A stretch of DNA of 64,000 nucleotides from Escherichia coli (GCF_044324875.1 NZ_CP172187.1); one strand, 5' to 3'. Positions 5,609-63,933 are shown, numbered from the stretch's first letter. Notes: a model not told the origin generated them from the letters alone. Made by a program: numbers and translations.

Positions 5609-5749
5609 TGACACTGGCGGGGTAAATCCCCGCCTTTTTCCTGCCGGTCCCCGGACAGAGCACAAAGGAAGTCGCCGCCGGCTCCGCTTTACCCGGCCAT
5701 GCGGGGCATGGCCTTGTGGATTTTCAGTTATGTGGCCTCAGCGTCGTGT

Positions 5750-5990
5750 GCGGGCTGTGCCGTGCCTCCATCGTAGCCGGGCTTCTGCGGGCGGGTTGCA
5801 AGGTAAGGTGAACCGCTGCGGTCACCCGGTCCCTCCTTCCCGTCTGCCGTGATTTTCCGGTCGTTCACCCGCTCAGATTTCGCGGTCTCACCCTCCAACT
5901 CCCGCCAGCCGTGTGCGTCAGGCTGCGGCTTCCCTTGCGCCCTTGCAACCCTGCAGGCCCGGCAAAGATGGAGGCACGGCACCGCCCGGT
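5750..5990. other. Long-range inverted repeat in a GC-rich 415-bp intergenic region upstream of klcA; candidate single-strand hairpin promoter/ssi element
   Basis: GCCGTGCCTCCATC (about 5763) pairs with GATGGAGGCACGGC (about 5968) about 190 nt apart, with further local palindromes; no ORF of note. Confidence 0.4.
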
Positions 5991-6024
5991 GTCGCGGAAT
6001 ATGTGAACAACGGAGGAAAACATC

Positions 6025-6450
6025 ATGCAATATGCGAAACCTGTCACTCTGAATGTTGAAGAGTGCGACCGTCTGTTTTTTCTGCCTTACCTGTTTGGCC
6101 AGGATTTTCTGTATGCCGAGGCATCTGTGTACGCGCTGGCGAAAAAAATGATGCCGGAATATGACGGCGGATTCTGGCACTTCATCCGCCTGCCGGACGG
6201 TGGCGGTTACATGATGCCGGATGGCGACCGTTTTCATCTGGTCAACGGTGAAAACTGGTTTGACCGTACGGTCAGCGCCGATGCCGCAGGCATCATTGTG
6301 ACTTCCCTTGTGATTAACCGTCAGTTGTGGCTGTACCACGACAGCGGTGATGCAGGACTGACTCACCTGTACAGGATGCGCGATGCGCAGTTGTGGAGCC
6401 ACATCGAATTTCACCCCGAATGCAATGCGATTTACGCGGCACTGGACTGA
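6025..6450 (+). CDS. klcA: KlcA/ArdB-family anti-restriction protein
   Basis: 141 aa with family hallmarks FLPYLFG...[16 protein letters not shown]...[11 protein letters not shown], matching my recollection of KlcA/YfjX-type proteins. Confidence 0.8.
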
Positions 6451-7295: not shown

Positions 7296-7895
7296 ATCTG
7301 CTGCTCTGATTCTGACTACTGCAGTGTTGTTCTGTCTGCCGGGCGCACCTTCGGCTCCCGGCTGCCTGGCGGCATCCGGTCGTCAGGCCCGACTCCGACA
7401 GGCAGCTGCTGGCGCACCTGCCAGTCTCCGCCGAACCCGCTGGCGCGGCTTCGGGCTGCCGCTACGGTCCGATGCGTGAAAACCCCGGGCTTGCAGCGAC
7501 CGTTCTGGTCGCGCCGCCTCTGTCGCGCCGTGGCCTGCGCTCCAGGCATCCCGGCAAAAAGACGCCGGGATGTAAGGCGCAACGCCGTTTCGCAAACCGC
7601 GCTTCACGTCGTTGCTGCGGGTCCCTGCTCATTGCCTGCCGGGTGCCACACACCCGTATGAGTCCCTGTCGCCGGGGGCATAGACAGCCACAACCTGCCG
7701 CACTGACTGTCCAGGGTAAATGAACAGCCCACAAAATTTTTTACCCAAAACCCGGTAAAAAATTTTGCGTTCTGCCCAGGACAGGTGCGTCAGGCCGTGG
7801 CAGTGATGCCCCTTGCGGCGAAGGTTCTCAAACGGGTGAAGTTCATACCACAGGGAATACAGCAGCAGGTTCCCGCGAAACGTCAAAACCGCGGC
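7296..7895. repeat. Leading-region repeat family B, copy 1 (~600 bp, GC-rich); candidate Frpo/ssi-like single-strand promoter
   Basis: Shares ...CTGATTCTGACTACTGCAGTGTTGTTCTGTCTGCCGGGCGCACCTTCGGCTCCCGGCTGCC... through ...CGCGGCTCCCGAAACTCAAC with copies at 10651-11280 and 18720-19340. Confidence 0.8.
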
Positions 7896-8148
7896 TCCCG
7901 AAACTCAACGGGTGATGTTCTTTAAAAATCAGGATTTATTTCAGGCTCCGGCAATACGCATTTATGTGTTCTGTCAGTCATCCGGCTGGCAGGTAATGAG
8001 AACGCAGGAACAGAAGGAGGAAAACACCGGAGAACGTCAGACGCAGATATGAAAAAAGCAGGCCGGGGAGGACCTGCTTAATCCACACCGCAAAAACTGT
8101 TCGAGCAGTTTCTGCGGTTCCATTCAACAGTCATAAGGAGTTTCATTT

Positions 8149-8379
8149 ATGACGGTAAGTATTGTTTCACCTTCCGCAGCGGCTGTAAAGCCCCGCCGTC
8201 ATCCCCGTTTCAGACGCGAAGACATCCCCGCGCCGGAAATTGACCCCGTGCTGAAAGCCTTCGGGCGACACATAGCCCGGAGTTTTCACCGGGGGCGTGG
8301 TGTACACATCCCCGCCATGAAAAACACGGCCTTCGGGCAGGTGCTCCGCACACTCGAACTGAAACGCGCTTTTAACTGA
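8149..8379 (+). CDS. Hypothetical small basic protein (76 aa)
   Basis: ORF downstream of repeat B copy 1 with RBS AGGAG. Confidence 0.4.
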   Translation: MTVSIVSPSAAAVKPRRHPRFRREDIPAPEIDPVLKAFGRHIARSFHRGRGVHIPAMKNTAFGQVLRTLELKRAFN

Positions 8380-8430
8380 TGAGGTGAGCCGCCCCGCGAG
8401 GGGCGGCAACAGATGGAAGGAGAACATTTT

Positions 8431-9792
8431 ATGACATTAGCAGCAATCACCATGACCGCCCCGGAAGCCGCCAACCCTGTGCAGATGTACCGCGCGACCT
8501 ACTCACCGGATGACAACAAACTGCGCCTGTATGCCGCGTCACGTCTTGACCCGGAGACGTATAAAAAAGTGCATGATGCCGGTTTTCGCTGGGCACCCAA
8601 ACAGGCGCTGTTTGTCGCGCCAGCCTGGACACCGGGCCGGGAAGACGTGCTCCTCTCACTTGCCGGAGAGATTGAGGATGAAGACAGCACGCTCGCTGAA
8701 CGTCAGGAAGCACGGGCGGAGCGGTTTACCGGATACAGCGGAAAGCGGGCCAGTGAATCCGCACAGGCACTTGATGAAGTGGAAAGACTGGCCGCGATGA
8801 TCCCGCCCGGTCAGCCCATTCTTGTGGGGCATCACAGCGAACGCCGCGCCCGTCGTGATGCGCAGCGTATTGAAAACGGCATGAAACGTGCCGTGATGCT
8901 CTTTGAGCGTGCGGAATACTGGGAGGAGCGGGCGCGGTCGGCACTGCTTCACGCGAAGTATAAAGAACGCCCGGACGTTCGCTGGCGTCGTATCAAAAAA
9001 ATCGAAGCGGATTTGCGCAAGGCTGAAAAGACCATCGCGCAGTCGCAGAAATATCTGACGATGTGGCGGGCTGAATCGCTGGATCTGAATATGGCAAAAC
9101 TCATCAGCAGTCATGACCATATCAGCGCCTGTTTCCCGCTGGACAGGTATCCGCGCCCGGCAGAAAAAAGCCAGTATGAAGGAAGTCGATCGTTATGGTC
9201 GGCCCTGGATGATGACATCATCACCACGGAGCAGGCCCGCGAAATTGCGATCCGCTGTCATGAACGGCAGATTCAGCATCAACAACGCTGGGTTAACCAC
9301 TATCATAACCGCCTGATCTATGAGCGTGCCATGCTGGACGAAAGCGGCGGCGTGGTTACCCGGACACAGGATTTTGAGCCGGGCGGACAGGTTTTCAGCC
9401 GGGGCGAGTGGCTGACCATCATCCGCGTGAACAAAAGCAACGGGGCGGTGAGTTCAGTCACAACGCCGAATTACAGTTTTCTCGGGTACAGCGGCACGAT
9501 GAAAGTGACACCCGATCGCATCACGGACTACAAAGCACCATCGGCAGAAGAGGCTGCCGTCGCCAGTCAGGCCGCGAAGCGTCCGCCGGTAGTCAACTAT
9601 CCGGGGGAAGGTTTCCGGGAAATGACAAAGGCGCAGTGGGCCGCCCTGCCCCGGGACTGTAAGGCCGTGCGCAGTGTGGCAGAGACAGAAGACCACGGGG
9701 CATACCGCTACCGCCGCACAATGGACAATAATTTCCGCCTGGTGAATGTGTATATCACTGACATGAAAATCACGGAAATCCCACAGAAATAA
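8431..9792 (+). CDS. Conserved hypothetical leading-region protein (~453 aa)
   Basis: ORF-track frame 8413..9792; ATG at 8431 follows AAGGAGAA. Charged and coiled-coil-like; no catalytic motif recognised. Confidence 0.55.
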   Translation: MTLAAITMTAPEAANPVQMYRATYSPDDNKLRLYAASRLDPETYKKVHDAGFRWAPKQALFVAPAWTPGREDVLLSLAGEIEDEDSTLAERQEARAERFTGYSGKRASESAQALDEVERLAAMIPPGQPILVGHHSERRARRDAQRIENGMKRAVMLFERAEYWEERARSALLHAKYKERPDVRWRRIKKIEADLRKAEKTIAQSQKYLTMWRAESLDLNMAKLISSHDHISACFPLDRYPRPAEKSQYEGSRSLWSALDDDIITTEQAREIAIRCHERQIQHQQRWVNHYHNRLIYERAMLDESGGVVTRTQDFEPGGQVFSRGEWLTIIRVNKSNGAVSSVTTPNYSFLGYSGTMKVTPDRITDYKAPSAEEAAVASQAAKRPPVVNYPGEGFREMTKAQWAALPRDCKAVRSVAETEDHGAYRYRRTMDNNFRLVNVYITDMKITEIPQK

Positions 9793-9838: not shown

Positions 9839-10402
9839 ATGCACAGTCAGTTAAGAGAACGTATCCGGCTGATGCGCGCAAGGCTGGATAACGCCGCGCC
9901 GGTTGCTGAAATCCGGGCTGAATCTCAGCTTTTTGTGACTCCTGCCCCGGTCTGTGATCGCCTGGTGACGCTGGCGGAAATCAGCAACCGTGATCACATT
10001 CTGGAACCCTCTGCCGGCACCGGGGCCATACTGCTGGCGATTCGGGATACCGCGCCGGAGGCCATGTGTGATGCGGTGGAGATTAACAGCGGGCTGGTCC
10101 GGTATCTGCGGGAAAATTTTAACGGTGTCAGGGTACAGTGTGGCGACTTCATGGAATGGCAGCCGGTGCAGTATTACAGCCGGATCATTATGAATCCGCC
10201 GTTCAGTCACGGGCAGGATATCCGGCATATCCTGCGGGCTTTTTCCCTGTTGCGTCCGGGGGGCGTTCTGGTTGCCGTCTGTCTCAACGGGCCGCGCCAG
10301 CAGGAGAAGCTGTTACCGTTTTCTGACGTCCGCGAGGAGCTGCCGCGCGGCACGTTTGCTTATACCGATGTCCCGACGATGATTATTCGTTTGCGTGCCT
10401 GA
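9839..10402 (+). CDS. Small SAM-dependent methyltransferase (187 aa); probable second orphan N6-adenine DNA methyltransferase
   Basis: SAM-binding-like LEPSAGTGAILLA followed by IMNPPF (NPPF-type motif IV); too short for a separate target-recognition domain, so substrate is uncertain. Confidence 0.65.
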   Translation: MHSQLRERIRLMRARLDNAAPVAEIRAESQLFVTPAPVCDRLVTLAEISNRDHILEPSAGTGAILLAIRDTAPEAMCDAVEINSGLVRYLRENFNGVRVQCGDFMEWQPVQYYSRIIMNPPFSHGQDIRHILRAFSLLRPGGVLVAVCLNGPRQQEKLLPFSDVREELPRGTFAYTDVPTMIIRLRA

Positions 10403-10581
10403 TGACACAGGGCTGGCGGGAGGATAAATGCCCGTCTGTCCGCGCCGGGAAAAGACCGCGCGCCGGTGGCGCTGAAAGGGGCCGCGCTCACGCGCCGCCC
10501 CTTTCATTACGCGGACGTTCTGATGGGGGCTTCTGTCTTTTCAGACCTGTCATTTGTCTGTTACTGATGATGTTGTTGTTC

Positions 10582-10647
10582 CTGCTACTGCTACTGCTAC
10601 TGCTACTGCTACTGCTACTGCTACTGCTACTGCTACTGCTACTGCTC
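10582..10647. repeat. Hexanucleotide tandem repeat (CTGCTA)x11
   Basis: Eleven perfect units counted directly at the 5' edge of repeat B copy 2; the equivalent position in copies 1 and 3 is not expanded. Confidence 0.9.
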
Positions 10648-10650
10648 TTC

Positions 10651-11280
10651 TTTTTCCTGCTGCTCTGATTCTGACTACTGCAGTGTTGTTCTGTCTGCCG
10701 GGCGCACCTTCGGCTCCCGGCTGCCTGGCGGCATCCGGTCGTCAGGCCCGACTCCGACAGGCAGCTGCTGGCGCACCTGCCAGTCTCCGCCGAACCCGCT
10801 GGCGCGGTTTCGGGCTGCCGCTACGGTCCGATGCGTGAAAACCCGGCTTGCAGCGACCGTTCCGGTCGCGCCGCCCCTGTCGCGCCGTGACCTGCGCTCC
10901 AGGCATCCCGGCAAAAAGACGCCGGGATGTAAGGCGCAACGCCGTTTCGCAAACCGCGCTTCACGTCGTTGCGGCGGGTCCCTGCCCGTTGTTGTGTCCG
11001 GTGCCATTCACCTGTTTAAGCCCCTGTCGCCGGGGGCTGATACAGCCACAACCTGCCGCACTGACTGTCCAGGGTAAATGAACAGCCCACAAAATTTTTT
11101 ACCCAAAACCCGGTAAAAAATTTTGCGTTCTGCCCAGGACAGGTGCGTCAGGCCGTGGCAGTGATGCCCCATGCGGCGAAGGTTCTCAAACAGGTGATGG
11201 TGAATACCGGAGGGAACAAAGAGCAGGTCCCCGCAAAACGTCAAAACCGCGGCTCCCGAAACTCAACAGATGATGGGGGC
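10651..11280. repeat. Leading-region repeat family B, copy 2, directly upstream of ssb
   Basis: Direct sequence identity with copies 1 and 3; the 3' end ...CGAAACTCAACAGATGATGGGGGCTGAAAAC is shared exactly with copy 3. Confidence 0.8.
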
Positions 11281-11308
11281 TGAAAACATCAACAGAAGGA
11301 GACACATC

Positions 11309-11347: not shown

Positions 11348-11960
11348 GTGCGCCGTTGAAGCGCGGTGTTTTATGGAGTGTTGCCTGAAAAGCAACATGG
11401 CTTAGTGGTATAGCCATTGCATACTGTGGTTAGCCTTGCTTGGTAACAGGCTCGGAGATCCTGAAAAGGAGAGGTGAACATAGCATCCACAGAAAAGGGT
11501 GGTGAATATGGAAATCGTTATAAGTATCACCATTCAATGCAAGATGTATATGGATAAACTGGGTTTGTTGAAGTCGAGATCTATGTGGGAAACAGGAAAC
11601 CAATAACGCAGAACGATTGAAGCGTTATTCCCGTACTAGCACAAGAAATCCGTCCGACGTTGATTGTGACCACTCTAACGGGCCAGCTATTGATGAAATA
11701 GTTAAACGATCGAAAGACATCCTAAGTACATCGCATCTCCACACCGTGAAACTACGGGACTACCTAAACTGGATTTATACCCAGCATGGTAGCGGAGTCT
11801 CCATAGTACTCAAGGTCGGCCTGTAATGGGTTCCGGCAGTCCGCATTATACGGAAGCAGCAAAGGTATAAATCAACCGGAAGGAAGATGAAAGCCTCACA
11901 GTGCTGCGGGGAAGGGAGACAGTTGTTAGATACATCAATCTCTAAGAGGAGGGTTAGCCA

Positions 11961-13862
11961 ATGCTGCCTGATGAACTTGAGAAAAGATTAGATGGAATTG
12001 AGGATGCTTCAAAAAAAGGGTATCCAGTACGTAATCTATACAAAATTGCGTGTGAGCCCGGACTGTGGCTGCAAGCCTACGTGAATATACGGGCCAATGC
12101 AGGTGCACTGACTCAAGGTGTATCAACAGATACCATTGATGGCTTTTCTATCGAAAGAGCAGAGAAGCTGGCAAAAACATTGCGGAGTAGAGAATACGTA
12201 GCGAAACCTGTACGCAGAGTTCAGATCCCAAAAAAGGACGGAAAAACCAGACCGCTGGGGATTCCAGGTGGAGACGATAAACTGGCGCAAGAAGTAGCAA
12301 GAATTATTCTGGAAAGGGTTTATGAACCAGTATTCTCTGAACACTCTCATGGATTCAGACCAAAACGTTCGTGTGAAACTGCGCTCAGATCTATTCGTCC
12401 AGTCTGGAACGGAGTTAAATGGATCGTGGATGTTGATATCAAAGGTTTCTTTGACAATATCCCCCACAAACTATTGCTGAATACACTGGCAGAGAAAATT
12501 AAGGATAAGAATTTCCTGAAATTAATCGAACAGTGGCTGAAGGCAGGATATGTGGACAATTGGAAATACCATCGCTCATATTCTGGCACGCCACAAGGTG
12601 GGATAATTTCTCCCTTACTGGCAAATATATACCTCGACAAACTGGACCGTTTTGTAGAACAGAATTTAATTCCTGCATATACAAGCGGTACAAAACGAAG
12701 AGCGAATCCAGATATGAACAGGCTGGCCCATAAGATTCATAAACTACGAAAGAAAGTAGACGGTATGGCAACTGATTCTGAATCAGAAAAAGAAGCCATA
12801 AAGAAAGAAATTGAACGACTGCTTGAAGAAAAACGTTCTATACCATCTCAGGTCATGAACGATCCAAACTTCAGGCGTATGTACTATGTTCGATATGCTG
12901 ATGACTTCGTAATCGGTGTCATCGGCTCGAAGAAAGATGCTGAACATATATCAAGACAGGTCAGAAACTTTATTACTACTTCACTGGGATTGGAAGTTAA
13001 TGAAGCAAAGACCAGGATCCGCCATATCTCAGAAGGAGTTAATTTTTTAGGCTATGAAATCAGACAGGCAGATGCAAAGAAATTGCTGAAGCAGAAAATG
13101 CAAGGGCGGCACGCTCTCCGGAGATCCACCACAGGAATTGTGCAGCTCTTCGTTCCTGACAATATAGCCGCTAAATTTTGTCACCAAAAGAAATATGGCT
13201 GTTATGAGAATGTGAAGGCTGTACATCGTTCAAGTCTACAAAATCTCAGTGAAGCTGAAATTGTTCTGACTTTCAACGCGGAAATGCGCGGATTGGCGAA
13301 CTACTACAGTCTGGCGCTGGACATGAAATATAAATTATCAAAATTATATTTCATATGGCAAATAAGCCTTTTTAAGACCCTGGCGAATAAACGACGTAGT
13401 TCAGTGAATAAAGTCGCCAAATCGCTACGGCAAAATAATGGAGATCTGGCTATTACCGTTCAGGCCAAAAATGGATCCCGAAAGATTGAGGTTTTCAAAC
13501 TCAAACATGTCAATCGCAACCGAACAACGATTGTCGATACGGAACCGAGAACCGCACATATCACAACCCGCACAACAGAGATCATGCGTCGATTAGGGGC
13601 AAGGATCTGCGAGTATTGTGCGAAGACTGGGCGCTGCGAAGTACATCATGTCAGAAAGCTAAAAGACCTGAAGAAAGGTCGTAAGGCCGGATATAAACCC
13701 AGCTTGTGGCAACTAATGATGATCGCACGCCGCCGGAAAACGATGATTTTGTGCGCAAGTTGCCACGACAAGTTACATAGCGGAAAACTACCCGATTTGA
13801 GACAGGAAAAGGGAAGAATACTCCTGCAACCACCTGTCTCAAGCGGGGATTCTGCTAAATGA
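11961..13862 (+). CDS. Group II intron-encoded protein: reverse transcriptase, maturase (X) and HNH endonuclease domains
   Basis: 633 aa with RT motifs (LGIPGGDDKLAQE, SHGFRPKRSCETAL, FFDNIPH, GTPQGGIISPLLANIYL, YVRYADDFVIGV) and a C-terminal Cys/His HNH-like cluster (CEYCAKTGRCEVHHV...CASCHDKLH). Confidence 0.9.
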   Translation: MLPDELEKRLDGIEDASKKGYPVRNLYKIACEPGLWLQAYVNIRANAGALTQGVSTDTIDGFSIERAEKLAKTLRSREYVAKPVRRVQIPKKDGKTRPLGIPGGDDKLAQEVARIILERVYEPVFSEHSHGFRPKRSCETALRSIRPVWNGVKWIVDVDIKGFFDNIPHKLLLNTLAEKIKDKNFLKLIEQWLKAGYVDNWKYHRSYSGTPQGGIISPLLANIYLDKLDRFVEQNLIPAYTSGTKRRANPDMNRLAHKIHKLRKKVDGMATDSESEKEAIKKEIERLLEEKRSIPSQVMNDPNFRRMYYVRYADDFVIGVIGSKKDAEHISRQVRNFITTSLGLEVNEAKTRIRHISEGVNFLGYEIRQADAKKLLKQKMQGRHALRRSTTGIVQLFVPDNIAAKFCHQKKYGCYENVKAVHRSSLQNLSEAEIVLTFNAEMRGLANYYSLALDMKYKLSKLYFIWQISLFKTLANKRRSSVNKVAKSLRQNNGDLAITVQAKNGSRKIEVFKLKHVNRNRTTIVDTEPRTAHITTRTTEIMRRLGARICEYCAKTGRCEVHHVRKLKDLKKGRKAGYKPSLWQLMMIARRRKTMILCASCHDKLHSGKLPDLRQEKGRILLQPPVSSGDSAK

Positions 13863-13888
13863 GTTTATCCCCAATAAGCTAGCAATGG

Positions 13889-13926
13889 AGAGCCGTATGC
13901 ACTGAAAGGTGCACGTACGGTTCGGA
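13889..13926 (+). ncRNA. Group II intron domain V (catalytic hairpin)
   Basis: Matches the conserved domain V consensus as I recall it (GAGCCGUAUGC...GCACGUACGGUUC), about 80 nt from the 3' splice site. Confidence 0.7.
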
Positions 13927-14008
13927 GGGGGGGTAACGGTGATCTAACTCAAGATAAGCAGGACATATTCGCCATTTATCTTGAAAGACCACACGTACCC
14001 TACCCTAC

Positions 14009-14497
14009 CGTCTGGGAAAAGATCCGGAAGTCCGTTACATCCCAAACGGGGGCGCAGTGGCAAACCTGCAGGTGGCCACGTCAGAAAGCTGGCGCGACAA
14101 ACAGACGGGGGAGATACGGGAGCAGACAGAATGGCATCGCGTGGTGCTGTTCGGCAAGCTCGCGGAAGTGGCTGGTGAGTATCTGCGCAAGGGCGCGCAG
14201 GTCTACATCGAAGGTCAGCTTCGCACCCGTAGCTGGGAGGATAACGGTATCACCCGTTACGTCACCGAAATTCTTGTTAAGACCACGGGCACCATGCAGA
14301 TGCTGGGACGTGCCGCAGGTACTCAGACTCAGCCGGAAGAGGCGCAACAGTTCAGCGGTCAGCCTCAGCCGGAATCACAGCCGGAACCGAAAAAAGGAGG
14401 CGCGAAAACGAAAGGCCGTGGACGTAAGGCCGCGCAGCCGGAGCCTCAGCAGCCGTCTGAACCCGCGTATGACTTCGATGACGACATTCCGTTCTAA
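14009..14497 (+). CDS. ssb: Plasmid single-stranded DNA-binding protein, exon 2
   Basis: In frame with ORF 14057..14497 ([19 protein letters not shown]...DDDIPF, acidic SSB tail); upstream in-frame codons [17 protein letters not shown] continue the SSB OB-fold. Confidence 0.8.
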
Positions 14498-14849: not shown

Positions 14850-16807
14850 ATGTCAGTTACAGAGTCTAAGACAAAAACGGAGCGTAAATCCAGCCGTAAA
14901 CCTGCAAAAACGCAGGAAACTGCACTGTCTGCCCTGCTGGCGCAGACGGAGGAAGTGAGCGTGCCGCTGGATTCACTGATTAAATCACCGCTGAATGTGC
15001 GCACGGTGCCGTATTCTGCGGAGTCCGTCAGTGAACTGGCTGATTCCATTAAGGGAGTCGGCCTGCTGCAGAATCTGGTTGTTCATGCCCTGCCAGGTGA
15101 CCGTTACGGTGTCGCCGCAGGTGGTCGCCGACTGGCAGCACTCAACATGCTGGCAGAGCGTGACATCATTCAGGCTGACTGGCCTGTCCGCGTGAAAATT
15201 ATTCCGCAGGAGCTGGCGACGGCTGCATCGATGACCGAGAACGGTCATCGTCGGGATATGCACCCTGCCGAACAGATTGCCGGATTCCGCGCAATGGCGC
15301 AGGAAGGCAAAACACCTGCGCAAATCGGTGATTTGCTGGGCTATTCACCCCGCCATGTCCAGCGAATGCTGAAACTGGCTGACCTTGCGCCTGTCATCCT
15401 CGATGCGCTGGCAGAAGACCGCATCACCACCGAACACTGTCAGGCGCTGGCGCTGGAGAACGACACCGCGCGTCAGGTGCAGGTGTTTGAAGCCGCTGCC
15501 AGTCAGGATGGGGTGGAAAACCGGATGTGCGGGTTATCCGCAACCTGATTACGGAAAGTGAAGTGGCGGTGAAGGACAACACTAAATTTCGCTTTGTGGG
15601 GGCTGATGCTTTCTCGCCTGACGAACTGCGCACCGATTTGTTCAGCGATGACGGGGACGGTTATGTCGACCGCGTGGCGCTCGATGCCGCCCTGCTGGAA
15701 AAACTCCAGGTTGTTGCAGAGTCCCTTCGGGAAGCAGAAGGCTGGGAATGGTGCGCCGGGCGCATGGAGCCAGTCGGTGAGTGCCGTGAGGATGCCGGAA
15801 CATACCGCTGTCTGCCGGAGCCGGAAGCGGTGCTGACGGAGGCGGAAGAAGAACGCCTGAACGAACTGATGACGCGTTACGACGCGCTGGAAAACCAGTG
15901 TGAGGAATCCGACCTGCTGGAAGCAGAAATGAAGCTGATGCGCTGCATGGCGAAGGTCAGAGCGTGGACGCCGGAGATACGTGCCGGAAGCGGTGTGGTG
16001 GTGTCCTGGCGTTATGGCAACGTATGTGTCCAGCGTGGTGTGCAGTTGCGCAGTGAAGATGACGCGACTGACGACGCTGACCGCACGGAACAGGTGCAGG
16101 AGAAAGCGTCAGTGGAGGAAATCAGTCTGCCACTGCTGACGAAAATGTCTTCCGAACGCACGCTGGCAGTCCAGGCGGCACTGATGCAGCAACCGGACAA
16201 ATCCCTGACACTGCTGGCATGGACGCTCTGCCTGAATGTGTTTGGCAGCGGAGCGTACAGTAAACCAGCACAAATCAGCCTGGAATGTAAACATTATTCG
16301 CTGACCAGCGATGCGCCGTCAGGGAAGGAAGGTGCCGCATTCATGGCGCTGATGGCAGAAAAAGCCCGTCTTGCGGCCCTGTTACCGGAGGGATGGTCAC
16401 GGGACATGACGACATTCCTTTCACTCAGTCAGGAGGTGCTGTTATCCCTGCTCAGTTTCTGCACCGCGTGCAGCATCCACGGCGTTCAGACCCGCGAGTG
16501 TGGTCACACGTCACGCAGCCCGCTGGACACGCTGGAGAGCGCCATCGGTTTTCACATGCGCGACTGGTGGCAGCCGACAAAAGCAAACTTCTTCGGACAC
16601 CTGAAAAAGCCGCAGATTATCGCAGCCCTGAATGAGGCAGGACTGTCCGGTGCCGCACGGGACGCGGAGAAGATGAAGAAAGGCGATGCGGCTGAACATG
16701 CAGAGTTCCATATGAAAGACAACCGCTGGGTGCCTGGCTGGATGTGTGCACCACGTCCACAGACGGATACCACTGAACGCACTGATAACCTGGCTGATGC
16801 CGCCTGA
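14850..16807 (+). CDS. ParB-like nuclease-domain protein, apparently split by a frameshift into 14850..15548 and 15527..16807
   Basis: N-terminal part has ParB/Srx-like motifs (LQNLVVHALPGDRYGVAAGGRRLAALN, HTH-like region); the second ORF continues in another frame with a 22-nt overlap. Combined length (~650 aa) is that of intact homologues as I recall them. Confidence 0.6.
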
Positions 16808-18012: not shown

Positions 18013-18199
18013 TGCGGCAACAATCACACGGATTTCCCGTGAACGGTCTGAATGAGCGGATTATTTTCAGGGAAAGTGAGTGTGGTCAGCGTGCAGGTAT
18101 ATGGGCTATGATGTGCCCGGCGCTTGAGGCTTTCTGCCTCATGACGTGAAGGTGGTTTGTTGCCGTGTTGTGTGGCAGAAAGAAGATAGCCCCGTAGTA

Positions 18200-18270
18200 A
18201 GTTAATTTTCATTAACCACCACGAGGCATCCCTATGTCTAGTCCACATCAGGATAGCCTCTTACCGCGCT
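18200..18270 (-). ncRNA. sok: Sok-type antisense RNA of the hok/mok/sok locus; approximate position
   Basis: Placed by analogy with type I hok/sok systems, where the antisense overlaps the mok start region; exact ends not determinable by eye. Confidence 0.35.
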
Positions 18271-18446
18271 TTGCGCAAGGAGAAGAAGGCCATGAAACTA
18301 CCACGAAGTTCCCTTGTCTGGTGTGTGTTGATCGTGTGTCTCACACTGTTGATATTCACTTATCTGACACGAAAATCGCTGTGCGAGATTCGTTACAGAG
18401 ACGGACACAGGGAGGTGGCGGCTTTCATGGCTTACGAATCCGGTAA
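18234..18446 (+). CDS. mok: Mok/FlmC-like overlapping reading frame that couples hok translation
   Basis: 70-aa ORF overlapping hok in a different frame. Confidence 0.55.
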
Positions 18447-18450: not shown

Positions 18451-18719
18451 CAACCTGGAGGCGGGCGCAGGCCCGCCTTTTCAGGACTGATGCTGGTCTG
18501 ACTACTGAAGCGCCTTTATAAAGGGGCTGCTGGTTCGCCGGTAGCCCCTTTCTCCTTGCTGATGTTGTACGGGCATGAACAACCTGACTTCAGGAAGGTC
18601 GTTTCCCTTCAGGAACGGGGATGAACGCGCGCCTGCGGCGCCCGTTCTTTTCCCCCGCCTTCTCTGGTTATGGCCTGTCAGAAATCACATCACCTTCCCT
18701 GTGATTATTCTCTTTTTCT

Positions 18720-19340
18720 TCCTGCTCTGATTCTGACTACTGCAGTGTTGTCCTGTCTGCCGGCGCACCTTCGGCTCCCGGCTGCCTGGCGGCATCCGGT
18801 CGTCAGGCCCGACTCCGACAGGCAGCTGCTGGCGCACCTGCCAGTCTCCGCCGAACCCGCTGGCGCGGTTTCGGGCTGTCGCTACGGTCCGATGCGTGAA
18901 AACCCCGGGCTTGCAGCGACCGTTCCGGTCGCGCCGCCTCTGTCGCGCCGTGGCCTGCGCTCCTGGCATCCCGGCAAAAAGACGCCGGGATGTAAGGCGC
19001 AACGCCGTTTCGCAAACCGCGCTTCACGTCGTTGCTGCGGGTCCCTGCCCGTTGTTGTGTCCGGTGCCATTCACCTGTTTAAGCCCCTGTCGCCGGGGGC
19101 TGATACAGCCACAACCTGCCGCACTGACTGTCCAGGGTAAATGAACAGCCCACAAAATTTTTTACCCAAAACCCGGTAAAAAATTTTGCGTTCTGCCCAG
19201 GACAGGTGCGTCAGGCCGTGGCAGTGATGCCCCATGCGGCGAAGGTTCTCAAACAGGTGATGGTGAATACCGGAGGGAACAAAGAGCAGGTCCCCGCAAA
19301 ACGTCAAAACCGCGGCTCCCGAAACTCAACAGATGATGGG
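18720..19340. repeat. Leading-region repeat family B, copy 3
   Basis: Direct identity with copies 1 and 2; ends about 30 nt upstream of the ATG at 19371. Confidence 0.8.
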
Positions 19341-19370
19341 GGCTGAAAACCAGAGAGAGGAGAAAGCTGG

Positions 19371-19658
19371 ATGAGTACCCGAAATATCCACGTTAACACC
19401 GCGTCGTACACGATTCTTGTTGCCGGGAGGGAAAAAAACACCGGGGAAGAGTGGGACGTCCTGGAATTCAGCAGCCTGACTGAGCTGAAAAAATATCGCA
19501 AAAGCCACCCGGAAAAGATGGCCTTCAGCTATAGCTACGCGCTCAGCCGGGGTGTGGATACGCAGTTCCGCCATATCAACATTGCGGAAGCCGATCACTT
19601 CAAACAGTTCCTGCGTCAGATTAAGCGTGCCGGCCTCGATATCCGGGCGATCTGCTGA
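19371..19658 (+). CDS. Hypothetical protein (95 aa) downstream of repeat B copy 3
   Basis: ORF with RBS GGAGAAAG. Confidence 0.5.
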   Translation: MSTRNIHVNTASYTILVAGREKNTGEEWDVLEFSSLTELKKYRKSHPEKMAFSYSYALSRGVDTQFRHINIAEADHFKQFLRQIKRAGLDIRAIC

Positions 19659-19776
19659 CCGGATGTGATGAATATCCCTCCTGATTGTTGCAATCTTGTT
19701 AATGGAGATCGGGAGAGATGATATTAAGCGGAAAAATTTTTTATTAAATTTATTCTTTCATAAAGGAGTAGCTGTT

Positions 19777-20598
19777 ATGCGATTAGCTTCCCGTTTTGGT
19801 CGGTATAATTCCATCCGTCGTGAACGTCCTTTAACGGATGATGAATTAATGCAGTTCGTGCCTTCGGTATTTTCCGGTGATAAACATGAGTCCCGGAGTG
19901 AACGTTATACGTATATTCCAACAATCAATATCATCAATAAGTTACGTGATGAAGGTTTCCAGCCATTCTTTGCCTGTCAGAGTCGGGTTCGTGATTTGGG
20001 ACGCCGCGAATACAGTAAACATATGTTACGTCTTCGCAGGGAAGGGCATATTAACGGGCAGGAAGTTCCTGAAATTATCCTGCTTAATTCACATGATGGT
20101 TCATCCAGTTATCAGATGATCCCCGGAATTTTTCGTTTTGTCTGCACAAATGGCCTGGTGTGCGGAAATAATTTTGGCGAAATCCGTGTTCCACATAAAG
20201 GTGATATTGTCGGGCAGGTTATCGAGGGAGCGTATGAAGTGCTCGGTGTCTTTGATAAGGTCACTGATAATATGGAGGCGATGAAAGAAATTCATCTTAA
20301 CAGTGACGAGCAACATTTATTTGGCAGAGCTGCACTGATGGTCAGGTATGAAGATGAAAATAAAACGCCAGTGACACCTGAACAGATAATTACTCCCCGT
20401 CGTCGGGAAGATAAACAGAACGATCTCTGGACAACCTGGCAGCGGGTTCAGGAGAATATGATAAAAGGTGGATTATCGGGGCGAAGTGCCTCCGGGAAAA
20501 ATACCAGGACAAGAGCCATTACAGGTATTGATGGTGATATAAGAATCAACAAGGCGTTATGGGTGATTGCCGAACAGTTCAGAAAGTGGAAGTCATGA
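19777..20598 (+). CDS. Conserved leading-region protein (273 aa), possibly DUF932/YubP-like
   Basis: ORF-track frame 19696..20598; ATG at 19777 preceded by AAGGAG. Family assignment is from memory and uncertain. Confidence 0.5.
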   Translation: MRLASRFGRYNSIRRERPLTDDELMQFVPSVFSGDKHESRSERYTYIPTINIINKLRDEGFQPFFACQSRVRDLGRREYSKHMLRLRREGHINGQEVPEIILLNSHDGSSSYQMIPGIFRFVCTNGLVCGNNFGEIRVPHKGDIVGQVIEGAYEVLGVFDKVTDNMEAMKEIHLNSDEQHLFGRAALMVRYEDENKTPVTPEQIITPRRREDKQNDLWTTWQRVQENMIKGGLSGRSASGKNTRTRAITGIDGDIRINKALWVIAEQFRKWKS

Positions 20599-20641: not shown

Positions 20642-20894
20642 TATTATCATTTTTCGGCATTGCTGTGTCGTCTGATATACCTCAATTTCATCGACCGGCT
20701 TTCCGGTTGTCTGTAAATATTGTGCCCGCGAAAAATGGTCTGGCAGGAGGCTGCGCAGTTACCGGGTATATATAAGATGGGTTCCCGCTTCGCGGGGCTT
20801 CGGCCAGTCAGTATTGTCACTCATATGATATTTTTGTGTGTGGCCTTCCATGCCGCTTTTGCGGCATAACCGGTATCTGACAATGTCTGTAAGA

Positions 20895-21404
20895 TTAATT
20901 GTTCTGCACGCTGTTAATTTCCGGAAGTGATTTCTTCGTGGCCGGAAGCCGGATACCTTTACTGCTTTTTATCCCGGTATAAATCCGGTAAACCTCTGAT
21001 GCGTAGGCAAGACGTCTCTGGTTCTGGCGTTCGGATTTCCTGAATCCTGCATTGTATGCACCAACGGCCTCCCAGGTGACGCCCCATTTTTTAAATGCTA
21101 TTGCCAGATAATAAGCACCGGTATAAATGTTCATGCAGGGATCTGTTGTCAGATGTTCTGGCTTAATTCCGTAGCGGGCCAGTTCGTTAAAATGCTGGGA
21201 ATCTACCTGCATCAGTCCGCTGCCATATCCCGTTACCGGATTAATACCGATGGCATTAACCCGGTAACGGGATTCTTTCCATGATATTGCTCTCAGTAAA
21301 TCAGGATCTATTTTGTAATCCCGGCCTGCAAGATCAAAGCAATCAGTGGCATGGCAGATCTCATTTATAAACATCAGGCAGATGGCTAACATCCATTTTT
21401 TCAT
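20895..21404 (-). CDS. Gene X / orf169-type lytic transglycosylase
   Basis: ORF-track frame 20895..21497; internal start [12 protein letters not shown] gives a 169-aa signal-peptide protein with a lytic transglycosylase-like region; adjacent to oriT as in F-like plasmids. Confidence 0.8.
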
Positions 21405-21469: not shown

Positions 21470-21830
21470 TGGTGGTTCTCACCACCAAAAGCACCACACA
21501 CTACGCAAAAACAAGTTTTTGCTGATTTGCCACTTGAATCATTAACTTATGTTTTAAATAATGTATTTTAATTTATTTTACATTATAAAAAGGATTCATT
21601 GGTGAATCGCATATGATTCACCAATGAATTTAACACAACTCATAGATGAATCAGTAATAATAAAACAACGAGTTAAAGCGAATTGACTCTAGATTCAATT
21701 CGTGATGTGATTTGCTGCATGAATCGTAATTTTCGTAACTTGCGTCACGATTCGATTCATCGATGAATTGTCATTTTTTTATATGTGAAATAAATTTGAT
21801 GCGATAAGAAAATAAAGAGGTATACATATG
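21470..21830. other. oriT region; predicted nic site on the minus strand at about 21495/21496
   Basis: Minus strand reads ...TTTTTGCGTAGTGTGT|GGTGCTTTTGGTGGTGAG, the F-like nic consensus as I recall it; AT-rich with multiple inverted repeats (e.g. 21590-21630, 21690-21770) in the expected TraM/IHF/TraY binding zone upstream of traM. Confidence 0.7.
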
Positions 21831-62733: not shown

Positions 62734-62947
62734 CGGATTAAAAATAGATGTAAATAAAAAGCATACTTATTGGCTGGAGTGACGCCTTCGTGCTTCGGTA
62801 GTAAAAAACGGGAAATGAAGGTAATAGTCAGCAACAGGGAATGTGGTATTATCGCGGCGGGTGTCTGAGCCTTTCTGGTTCAGGCAAGACGCAGGTACCA
62901 GAAATGCGAAGACCCCACTTGTTAATCCATTAACTCGTGAGGTCTGC

Positions 62948-63154
62948 ATGAAGTACTTGAACACTACTGATTGTAGCCTCTTCCTTGCAGAGAGGTCAAA
63001 GTTTATGACGAAATATGCCCTTATCGGGTTGCTCGCCGTGTGCGCCACGGTGTTGTGTTTTTCACTGATATTCAGGGAACGGTTATGTGAACTGAATATT
63101 CACAGGGGAAATACAGTGGTGCAGGTAACTCTGGCCTACGAAGCACGGAAGTAA
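62948..63154 (+). CDS. SrnB' leader reading frame (mok analogue)
   Basis: ATG at 62948 (MKYLNTTD...) in frame with srnB. Confidence 0.5.
   Translation: MKYLNTTDCSLFLAERSKFMTKYALIGLLAVCATVLCFSLIFRERLCELNIHRGNTVVQVTLAYEARK
63005..63154 (+). CDS. srnB: SrnB/PndA-type Hok-family toxin (49 aa)
   Basis: MTKYALIGLLAVCATVLCFSLIFRERLCELNIHRGNTVVQVTLAYEARK. Confidence 0.85.
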   Translation: MTKYALIGLLAVCATVLCFSLIFRERLCELNIHRGNTVVQVTLAYEARK

Positions 63155-63698: not shown

Positions 63699-63933
63699 CT
63701 AAGTTACTTTCTTGAACATTTGAATTGCGGATGCTAGATTACTGATCGTTTAAGGAATTTTGTGGCTGGCCACGCCGTAAGGTGGCAGGGAACTGGTTCT
63801 GATGTGGATTTACAGGAGCCAGAAAAGTGAAAACCCCGATAATCTTCAGCAAGTTTGGCGACTAAGAGAAGATTAACGGGGCCATCTAAAAACCGTATAG
63901 CCAACAATTCAGCTATGCGGGGAGTATAGTTAT

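Follow-up and report, generated by a model that had tools for sequence, protein, structure and literature searches.

Three leading-region repeats of an IncF plasmid identified from sequence as class 1 (Frpo/ssi-type) single-stranded DNA promoters, each with an additional distal module

The plasmid DNA analysed here, a stretch of 64,000 nucleotides that we call the window, carries three long direct repeats in its leading region. On the evidence of homology and predicted folding, these repeats are known Frpo/ssi (ssp1) elements, the class 1 single-stranded DNA (ssDNA) promoters, and are not a discovery. We are highly confident that each is a promoter unit in which a hairpin mimics a duplex promoter and so provides an early burst of gene expression. 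By the same comparisons, the promoter that has been described corresponds to the right-hand half of each repeat only, and the left-hand half is additional. The exact positions of the promoter boxes and start sites, and the activity of all three copies in this plasmid, are points that we infer.

The direct repeats were delimited by a repeat search and by MAFFT alignment, and each measures ~640 bp (Table 1). The mean column identity of the three-copy alignment is 93%. Copies 2 and 3 are ~98% alike, and the divergence of copy 1 in the three-way alignment is found mainly in its right-hand third. Repeats of 640 bp with 93-98% identity cannot have arisen by chance. A blastn search found no fourth copy within the 64,000-nt window. 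The copies differ by indels of 1 or 2 nt that break the frames of the internal open reading frames (ORFs), and these chance ORFs differ from copy to copy, which argues that the repeats are non-coding. At the left end the homology dwindles gradually in the alignment, with no abrupt terminus. An earlier, sequence-only reading had described near-identical repeats of ~600 bp, each immediately upstream of a gene. The number of copies and their similarity stand, with limits slightly wider than proposed. The placement holds closely for copy 2, where the ATG of ssb (11310) lies 17 nt beyond the repeat, and for copy 3, where ORF 19371-19658 begins 15 nt beyond the repeat and is followed by a DUF932 ORF (19696-20598). 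It holds only loosely for copy 1, since ORF 8149 begins 214 nt beyond its end. This gap contains an Rfam match to AS-pc01, the antisense RNA of plasmid pHK01 (8053-8154 on the minus strand, 89.7 bits), and, on the plus strand, a 10-codon mini-ORF (ATG 8050) plus a hairpin.

Two further observations concern the surroundings of copy 2. A perfect tandem hexanucleotide array, (CTGCTA) x 10.8 at 10582-10646, adjoins the repeat and forms the 3' end of ORF 10402-10668. This ORF encodes 88 aa here and 82 aa in NZ_MW800637, and the length of the array therefore probably varies between plasmids. On the other side of the repeat, ssb is interrupted past codon 13 by a group II intron (11349-14010) that starts with GTGCGCC. 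The intron holds a reverse transcriptase/maturase ORF (11961-13862; TIGR04416, E = 1e-92) and an Rfam Intron_gpII match (13888-14008), and exon 2 of ssb restarts at 14011. The same ssb-intron junction is present in 313 plasmid records; NZ_MW800637, which is otherwise identical, has an intact ssb. Since ssb is split in this way, early production of SSB from an ssDNA promoter would require splicing.

The window covers the leading and transfer regions of an IncF plasmid, and its repeat is 100% identical to that of NZ_MW800637. The genes are ordered methylase, antirestriction, ssb, parB-like, psiB, psiA, hok/sok, ygeA/B-like, orf169 and oriT-traM-traJ, with traM/traJ/FinP at 21.8-22.4 kb. The sequence TTTGCGTAGTGTGTGGTGCTTT, a nick region of the R100 type, was found on the minus strand at 21491-21510. 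At the nick, the relaxase takes the 5' end into the recipient. With the nick on the minus strand, it is thus the minus strand that is transferred, 5' to 3' toward lower coordinates, and that serves as template for the plus-strand genes. This agrees with the earlier proposal that the geometry of oriT implies minus-strand transfer, with plus-strand genes read from the entering strand. Everything below 21.5 kb is leading region. The copies lie 2-14 kb inside it and share one orientation relative to oriT, and the genes downstream of them are on the plus strand.

Other structured elements were seen in the same DNA. Near oriT, the DUF932 gene and orf169 flank a homologue of F ssiE (20712-20900, minus strand; 97.9% over 190 nt). 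Two matches to sok-type antitoxin RNAs (hok/sok-like) were found, one at 18118-18294 just upstream of copy 3 and one at 62859-63015 near the replication region, where there is also a CopA match (63825-63916). Another long hairpin of the transferred strand, at 5660-6024 (z = -4.8), is directly upstream of ORF 6025-6450, whose equivalent in NZ_MW800637 is annotated as an antirestriction protein. This segment shares 95% identity with the sequence that precedes ardA in the IncK2/Z plasmid pL2-87, resembles 'Frpo' 4' of Samuel 2024 and is probably a class 2 ssDNA promoter (ssp2).

The assignment of the repeats rests on blastn comparison with the sequences in supplement files 4 and 11 of Samuel 2024 (PMC11541004) and with the F plasmid (NC_002483). 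Copy 2 matches the 288-nt F Frpo2 fragment at 97.6% over 287 nt (11022-11308) and the 351-nt F ssiD at 87% over 355 nt (10930-11279). The corresponding values are 97.4% and 86.8% for copy 3, and 91% and 80% for copy 1. The hairpin tips of the ColIb-P9 ssi elements give a weaker match, 78-80% over 80-96 nt. The sequence-only reading had suggested single-strand promoters of the Frpo/ssi type and an alignment against F Frpo, and the homology of the repeats to Frpo2, ssiD and the ColIb-P9 tips supports that suggestion. F ssiD is the original Frpo (Frpo1, ssp1a) of Masai and Arai 1997.

The activity of the F elements has been demonstrated in vitro and in vivo (PMC9849209, PMC11541004, PMC12672017). 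Deletion of Frpo1 or Frpo2 abolishes the early production of downstream proteins in transconjugants (Couturier 2023, PMC9849209). When the F Frpo2 fragment was placed before an anti-CRISPR gene, it gave early expression and protection of F from Cas9 only in the leading region and only on the transferred strand (Samuel 2024, PMC11541004). The start sites of such promoters were mapped in pESBL in the study that named the family class 1 (Wen 2025, PMC12672017), and a 2026 preprint, in which the elements are named ssp1a and ssp1b, reports that they also prime complementary-strand synthesis (10.64898/2026.01.09.698686).

On the minus strand, each copy is predicted to form one long imperfect hairpin of ~320 nt with 121-123 bp. 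The earlier description of the repeats as hairpin-rich, with its proposal to fold the transferred strand of each copy, is thus borne out in all three copies. For the whole unit (10651-11300), the minimum free energy is -191.7 kcal/mol, compared to -128.8 +/- 5.4 for shuffled sequences (z = -11.6). The core (10930-11290) reaches -106.4 on the minus strand, compared to -91.9 when its pairing is forced on the plus strand. In all three copies the minus strand is favoured over the plus-strand pairs by ~13-14 kcal/mol. This preference arises because the core hairpin contains 8 G.T pairs, and it suggests that selection has acted on the transferred strand.

Covariation was analysed in a set of 11 homologues, made up of the three window copies, two from F, three from ColIb, one from Serratia and two from an insect metagenome. 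In the consensus fold, 95.4% of cells are paired compared to 88.0% in shuffles. Two-sided pair changes number 14, compared to 7.0 +/- 1.5 in shuffled alignments (reached in 0/500) and at most 4 in slid controls. One helix (alignment columns 156-168/286-298) covaries at 7 of its 11 pairs, and the adjacent helix (columns 176-185/266-275) is nearly invariant, with TGTCC.GGG paired with CCC.GGACA. The covariation of the stem indicates that the structure is under selection. In copy 2, the long hairpin constitutes the class 1 (Frpo/ssi) ssDNA promoter itself.

The functional F Frpo2 construct starts at the position matching 11022, and the promoter must therefore sit in the upper part of the hairpin. 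In the arrangement that we propose, the template would be the 5' arm, which is contiguous with ssb, and the 3' arm would be the non-template strand, read from loop to base. To judge by sequence and conservation, the TGGACA/TGTCC duplex is probably the -35 box. A spacer needs only to be paired, whereas a -35 box is read by its sequence. A covarying spacer helix and an invariant -35 helix would be expected, and this is the pattern that is seen; the covarying helix would then be the spacer and the invariant helix the -35 box. The tip of the hairpin comprises 16 bp and sets AAAAAATTTT at ~-56 to -47 along the unbulged template arm. At this place AAAAAATTTT fits the consensus of the distal UP element at 9 of 11 positions. 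An UP element is also marked on the Frpo structures of Samuel 2024 (PMC11541004). The internal loop with the -10 candidate faces 11160-11165 on the template side. If transcription begins at the candidate start, the leader to ssb would be ~137-139 nt.

Table 1. Coordinates of the repeats, of their predicted hairpins and candidate promoter elements, and of associated features
Feature	Position	Strand	Basis and remarks
Repeat copy 1, whole unit (distal module, promoter hairpin and leader start)	7296-7935	-	Alignment; blastn
Copy 1 distal module	7296-7586		
Copy 1 long hairpin, 122 bp	7587-7904	-	Predicted fold
Operon downstream of copy 1	ORF 8149-8379; DUF3560 8413-9792; SAM methyltransferase 9839-10402; ORF 10402-10668		
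Repeat copy 2, whole unit	10655-11293	-	Repeat search, alignment, blastn
Copy 2 distal module, GC-rich, multi-hairpin	10655-10943	-	3' of the promoter hairpin on the transferred strand; covariation
Distal-module hairpin with GAA triloop, GCGACCG-GAA-CGGTCGC	10853-10869	-	Predicted fold
Distal-module hairpin CATCCCGGC...GCCGGGATG	10904-10929	-	Hairpin quoted in the sequence-only reading
Copy 2 long hairpin, 123 bp, loop at 11104-11111	10944-11262	-	Predicted fold; covariation
Candidate -10, TGTATC (3/6)	11039-11044	-	Internal loop, 18 helical positions downstream of the -35 candidate; weak, sequence varies among homologues
Candidate -35, TGGACA (5/6)	11066-11071	-	Non-template arm; paired with TGTCC at ~11137-11141; duplex nearly invariant in 11 homologues
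Conserved 8-nt bulge TTCATTTA (CAT[T/C]T motif)	11075-11082	-	Non-template arm, between the UP-like stem and the -35 candidate
UP-element-like AAAAAATTTT	11091-11100	-	Hairpin tip, non-template arm; position counted on the template arm
Candidate transcription start, RNA-sense ATG	11171-11173	+	3-nt template-arm bulge, 6-8 nt past the -10 position; putative
Repeat copy 3, whole unit	18718-19356	-	Alignment; blastn
Copy 3 distal module	18718-19007		
Copy 3 long hairpin, 121 bp	19008-19324	-	Predicted fold
oriT nick region (R100 type), TTTGCGTAGTGTGT|GGTGCTTT	21491-21510	-	Sequence found on the minus strand

A weight-matrix scan found no strong conserved canonical -35/-10 pair on the transferred strand of 8 homologues (best 5-6 bits), and the published "canonical" boxes were not reproduced by our own consensus scans. 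With a stricter scan, no sigma-70-like promoter was found in the region read as duplex DNA, which fits activity as ssDNA only. Three other placements were considered and rejected. The best scan match, TTGACG-N17/18-TTTTGT at the hairpin base (~11215-11245), has its pairing partner at 10946-11017, a segment missing from the Frpo2 construct that is active in vivo. The reverse arrangement, with the 5' arm as non-template strand, TTGAGA-N17-CATCAC as boxes and transcription toward the loop, needs an arm that the working construct likewise lacks. For TTGTGG after the A/T tip as the -35 box, there is no -10-like match at a consistent spacing in ssiD or in the ColIb copies.

Each repeat is twice the length of a characterised Frpo, and by blastn its distal ~290 nt lie outside both ssiD and the Frpo2 construct. 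The hairpin that the sequence-only reading had quoted as an example, GGCATCCCGGCAAAAAGACGCCGGGATGT, was found in this part of copy 2 (~10902-10930). A ~200-nt core of the distal module is 93-96% identical to the IncK2/Z plasmid pL2-87 of the I-complex, compared to only 72.6% in the psiB/psiA region, and the promoter hairpin of pL2-87 aligns to the window far less well than the distal core. For covariation, 8 sequences were available, namely the three near-identical window copies and five from IncK, Klebsiella IncFII and Enterobacter MOBP plasmids. Among these 8 sequences, which represent few independent lineages, 98.4% of cells are paired and there are 10 two-sided pair changes, compared to 5.8 +/- 1.3 in shuffled alignments (0/500) and at most 2 in slid controls. 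Among the pairs of the module, several G.T pairs are invariant, which points to a polarity on the transferred strand. The module is exchanged as a cassette that occurs in two far-distal forms: F carries type Y, and type X is found in this plasmid, in R100 and in plasmids of Klebsiella and Enterobacter. As F has a different far-distal sequence, the distal module is dispensable for promoter activity. A terminator scan found no convincing intrinsic terminator in the module, and a simple role as an RNA terminator is therefore not supported; the literature accessible to this analysis assigns no function to it. Complementary-strand synthesis and upstream transcription would both meet the distal module just before they meet the promoter hairpin, which suggests a role as roadblock, insulator or priming site. 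It is possible, if rather unlikely, that the distal ~290 nt form a separate functional element of the transferred strand, undescribed in the accessible literature, that acts as a roadblock/insulator or as a primosome-type priming site.

Among the closest known systems is F Frpo2 (ssp1b), upstream of ssb-yfjA-yfjB-psiB-psiA, which resembles copy 2 in position, strand logic and hairpin; all three window copies match its hairpin tip at 92-100% identity. The F repeats used in the comparison are at 10010-10635 and 15398-16025 of locus L002; F thus has two copies and this plasmid three. The far-distal part of the F repeats (type Y, L002 ~10016-10200) differs in sequence from its type X counterpart at 10686-10833 of the window. 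F Frpo2 is itself a chimera, with a lower 3' arm of the copy 1 type and a lower 5' arm of the copy 2 type, and its lower stem is mismatched. F ssiD/Frpo1 is homologous over its whole 351 nt, and copy 3 occupies the same position, before ygeA/ygeB-like genes. The tip of copy 3 is nevertheless of the Frpo2 type and not of the ssiD type (56-70% identity to the ssiD-type tip), indicating that the copies in this plasmid have been homogenised.

Segment-wise identities reveal that the repeats are patchworks of alternative segments; the tip, for example, is common to the window copies and F Frpo2 and is not that of F Frpo1. In the lower stem, copies 1 and 2 differ by compensating changes, CACCCG/CGGGTG in one compared to CACCTG/CAGGTG in the other. 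This mosaicism fits recombination between copies; the absence from F of the 3.4-kb operon that separates copies 1 and 2 here would have the same explanation. A comparable deletion has been described in an IncI plasmid (PMC3817090).

The ssi1-3 elements of ColIb-P9/IncI1, repeats of ~328 nt, are likewise three dispersed leading-region copies with a long hairpin and an A/T-rich tip. They share with the window repeats the CCCTGGAC / GTCC.GGG duplex, a small hairpin after the long one and a GGAGCGC..CGGCGCGAC motif; their outer arms could not be aligned to the window by BLAST. A folded ssDNA read by the host RNA polymerase is also known from ssoA of rolling-circle plasmids, where it yields a primer RNA. 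ssoA, which occurs in rolling-circle plasmids of Gram-positive bacteria, has no known sequence relationship to the repeats and is known to serve replication only, with no downstream genes. The class 2 and class 3 ssDNA promoters (ssp2, ssp3; Wen 2025 and 2026 preprint) follow the same principle of a leading-region hairpin on the transferred strand and have no sequence similarity to the repeats. For ssp2, the 2026 preprint also reports a role as a replication roadblock, which is not reported for class 1.

How the units are distributed bears on the idea of mobile-element remnants, raised earlier as a reading that could displace the promoter. In the form considered here, an element similar to a MITE or an insertion sequence would have inserted three times in the leading region and left remnants or copies. 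In its favour, the repeats are long, dispersed and near-identical, each with a very large inverted repeat inside it, and recombination between copies does reshuffle leading regions, as the mosaic segments and a published case (PMC3817090) illustrate. However, there is no transposase, and the indels between copies break the frames of the internal ORFs, which are therefore not conserved. Across 5,426 complete E. coli genomes, 13,784 places hold the unit (median 3 per genome), and plasmids account for 13,629 of them (98.9%); at least one of the rare chromosomal matches (H139) adjoins an ssb gene, as would be expected from an integrated F-like plasmid. More than 5000 plasmid records contain the unit, and the 5000 best-scoring of them hold 13,674 places, or ~2.7 per record, most of the records listed having 3. 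In all loci that were inspected the unit precedes genes of the leading-region type, the window copies are co-oriented relative to oriT, and the stem covaries. We give this explanation almost no credence. Of 120 loci in genome contigs that match the 15-mer CGACCGGAACGGTCG, nearly all lie in GC-rich genomes and match by chance; the only true homologue was in a Citrobacter sp. (L079).

That the units encode a product, be it small proteins or a structured RNA of minus polarity made from duplex DNA, is very unlikely. RefSeq/PGAP does annotate 2-4 'hypothetical proteins' across the repeats in thousands of plasmids, yet the frames and lengths of these ORFs differ among copies and homologues, as they do for chance ORFs in GC-rich DNA, and the annotated proteins are probably spurious calls in DNA that is GC-rich and structured. 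The G.T (G.U) pairs would suit an RNA of minus polarity, and the best sigma-70-like match on the minus strand, TTGACG-N17/18-TTTTGT near 11240, could be taken as its promoter. Its -10 match, however, has no A at position 2, where this base is essential, no promoter emerges from the stricter scan, and the Frpo2 construct functions without the pairing partner of the TTGACG region. No Rfam family was matched by the repeat at the gathering threshold, and permissive settings returned only two chance-level matches (E = 0.78 and 2.3).

The units might mainly be priming sites (ssi) for complementary-strand synthesis, the hairpin-derived RNA remaining hybridised and being extended by DNA polymerase, with gene expression a secondary effect. 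F ssiD was originally obtained as a site of single-strand initiation, the RNA made at Frpo acts as a primer for DNA synthesis in vitro (PMC7736820, PMC12672017), and early conversion downstream of ssp1a and ssp1b is reported to be rifampicin-sensitive in vivo (10.64898/2026.01.09.698686). Priming, however, uses the same transcription event and is compatible with a promoter role rather than exclusive of it. Each copy precedes an operon on the same strand with a ribosome-binding site (copy 1 at 214 nt), deletion of the F copies abolishes downstream protein production (PMC9849209), and a separate ssiE homologue is present near oriT. We consider it unlikely that priming is the main function, and retain the class 1 promoter as the preferred reading.

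According to the promoter model, the minus strand would enter the recipient with its 5' end first from the nick at ~21.5 kb, and on arrival ~320 nt of each unit would snap into the long imperfect hairpin. The hairpin would mimic duplex promoter DNA for the host sigma-70 RNA polymerase, with the A/T-rich UP-like tip, the TGGACA/TGTCC duplex as -35 box, a paired spacer and an internal loop that is already open at the -10 site as its proposed parts. Transcription would proceed from the loop side down to the hairpin base and continue on the incoming strand through the genes beyond. Its targets would be the hypothetical/DUF3560/methyltransferase operon for copy 1, ssb and the later genes for copy 2, and the ygeA/ygeB-like genes for copy 3. 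Synthesis of the complementary strand would then abolish the hairpin and switch the promoter off, limiting the production of 'establishment' proteins to a brief burst. These transcripts could also prime complementary-strand synthesis. Two observations sit uneasily with the promoter model, namely that ssb is split by the intron and that copy 1 is 214 nt from its ORF with the AS-pc01 match in between.

The mechanism was established in 1997 and confirmed in vivo in 2023-2026, and the value of the present assignment is one of annotation, since what RefSeq lists as 'hypothetical proteins' are regulatory ssDNA elements. The conserved distal module is the sole point that goes beyond the known element and might merit experiments. 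If it is functional as proposed, it could shield the hairpin promoter and prolong its activity, as ssp2 does in F. A class 1 promoter lets the genes that enter first be transcribed before the plasmid is double-stranded, which would allow an early launch of establishment genes in the first minutes after transfer, including those for SSB, an SOS inhibitor, a methyltransferase and probable anti-defence functions. The three copies flag three such early operons in this plasmid, and one of them, the hypothetical/DUF3560/methyltransferase operon, is missing from F.
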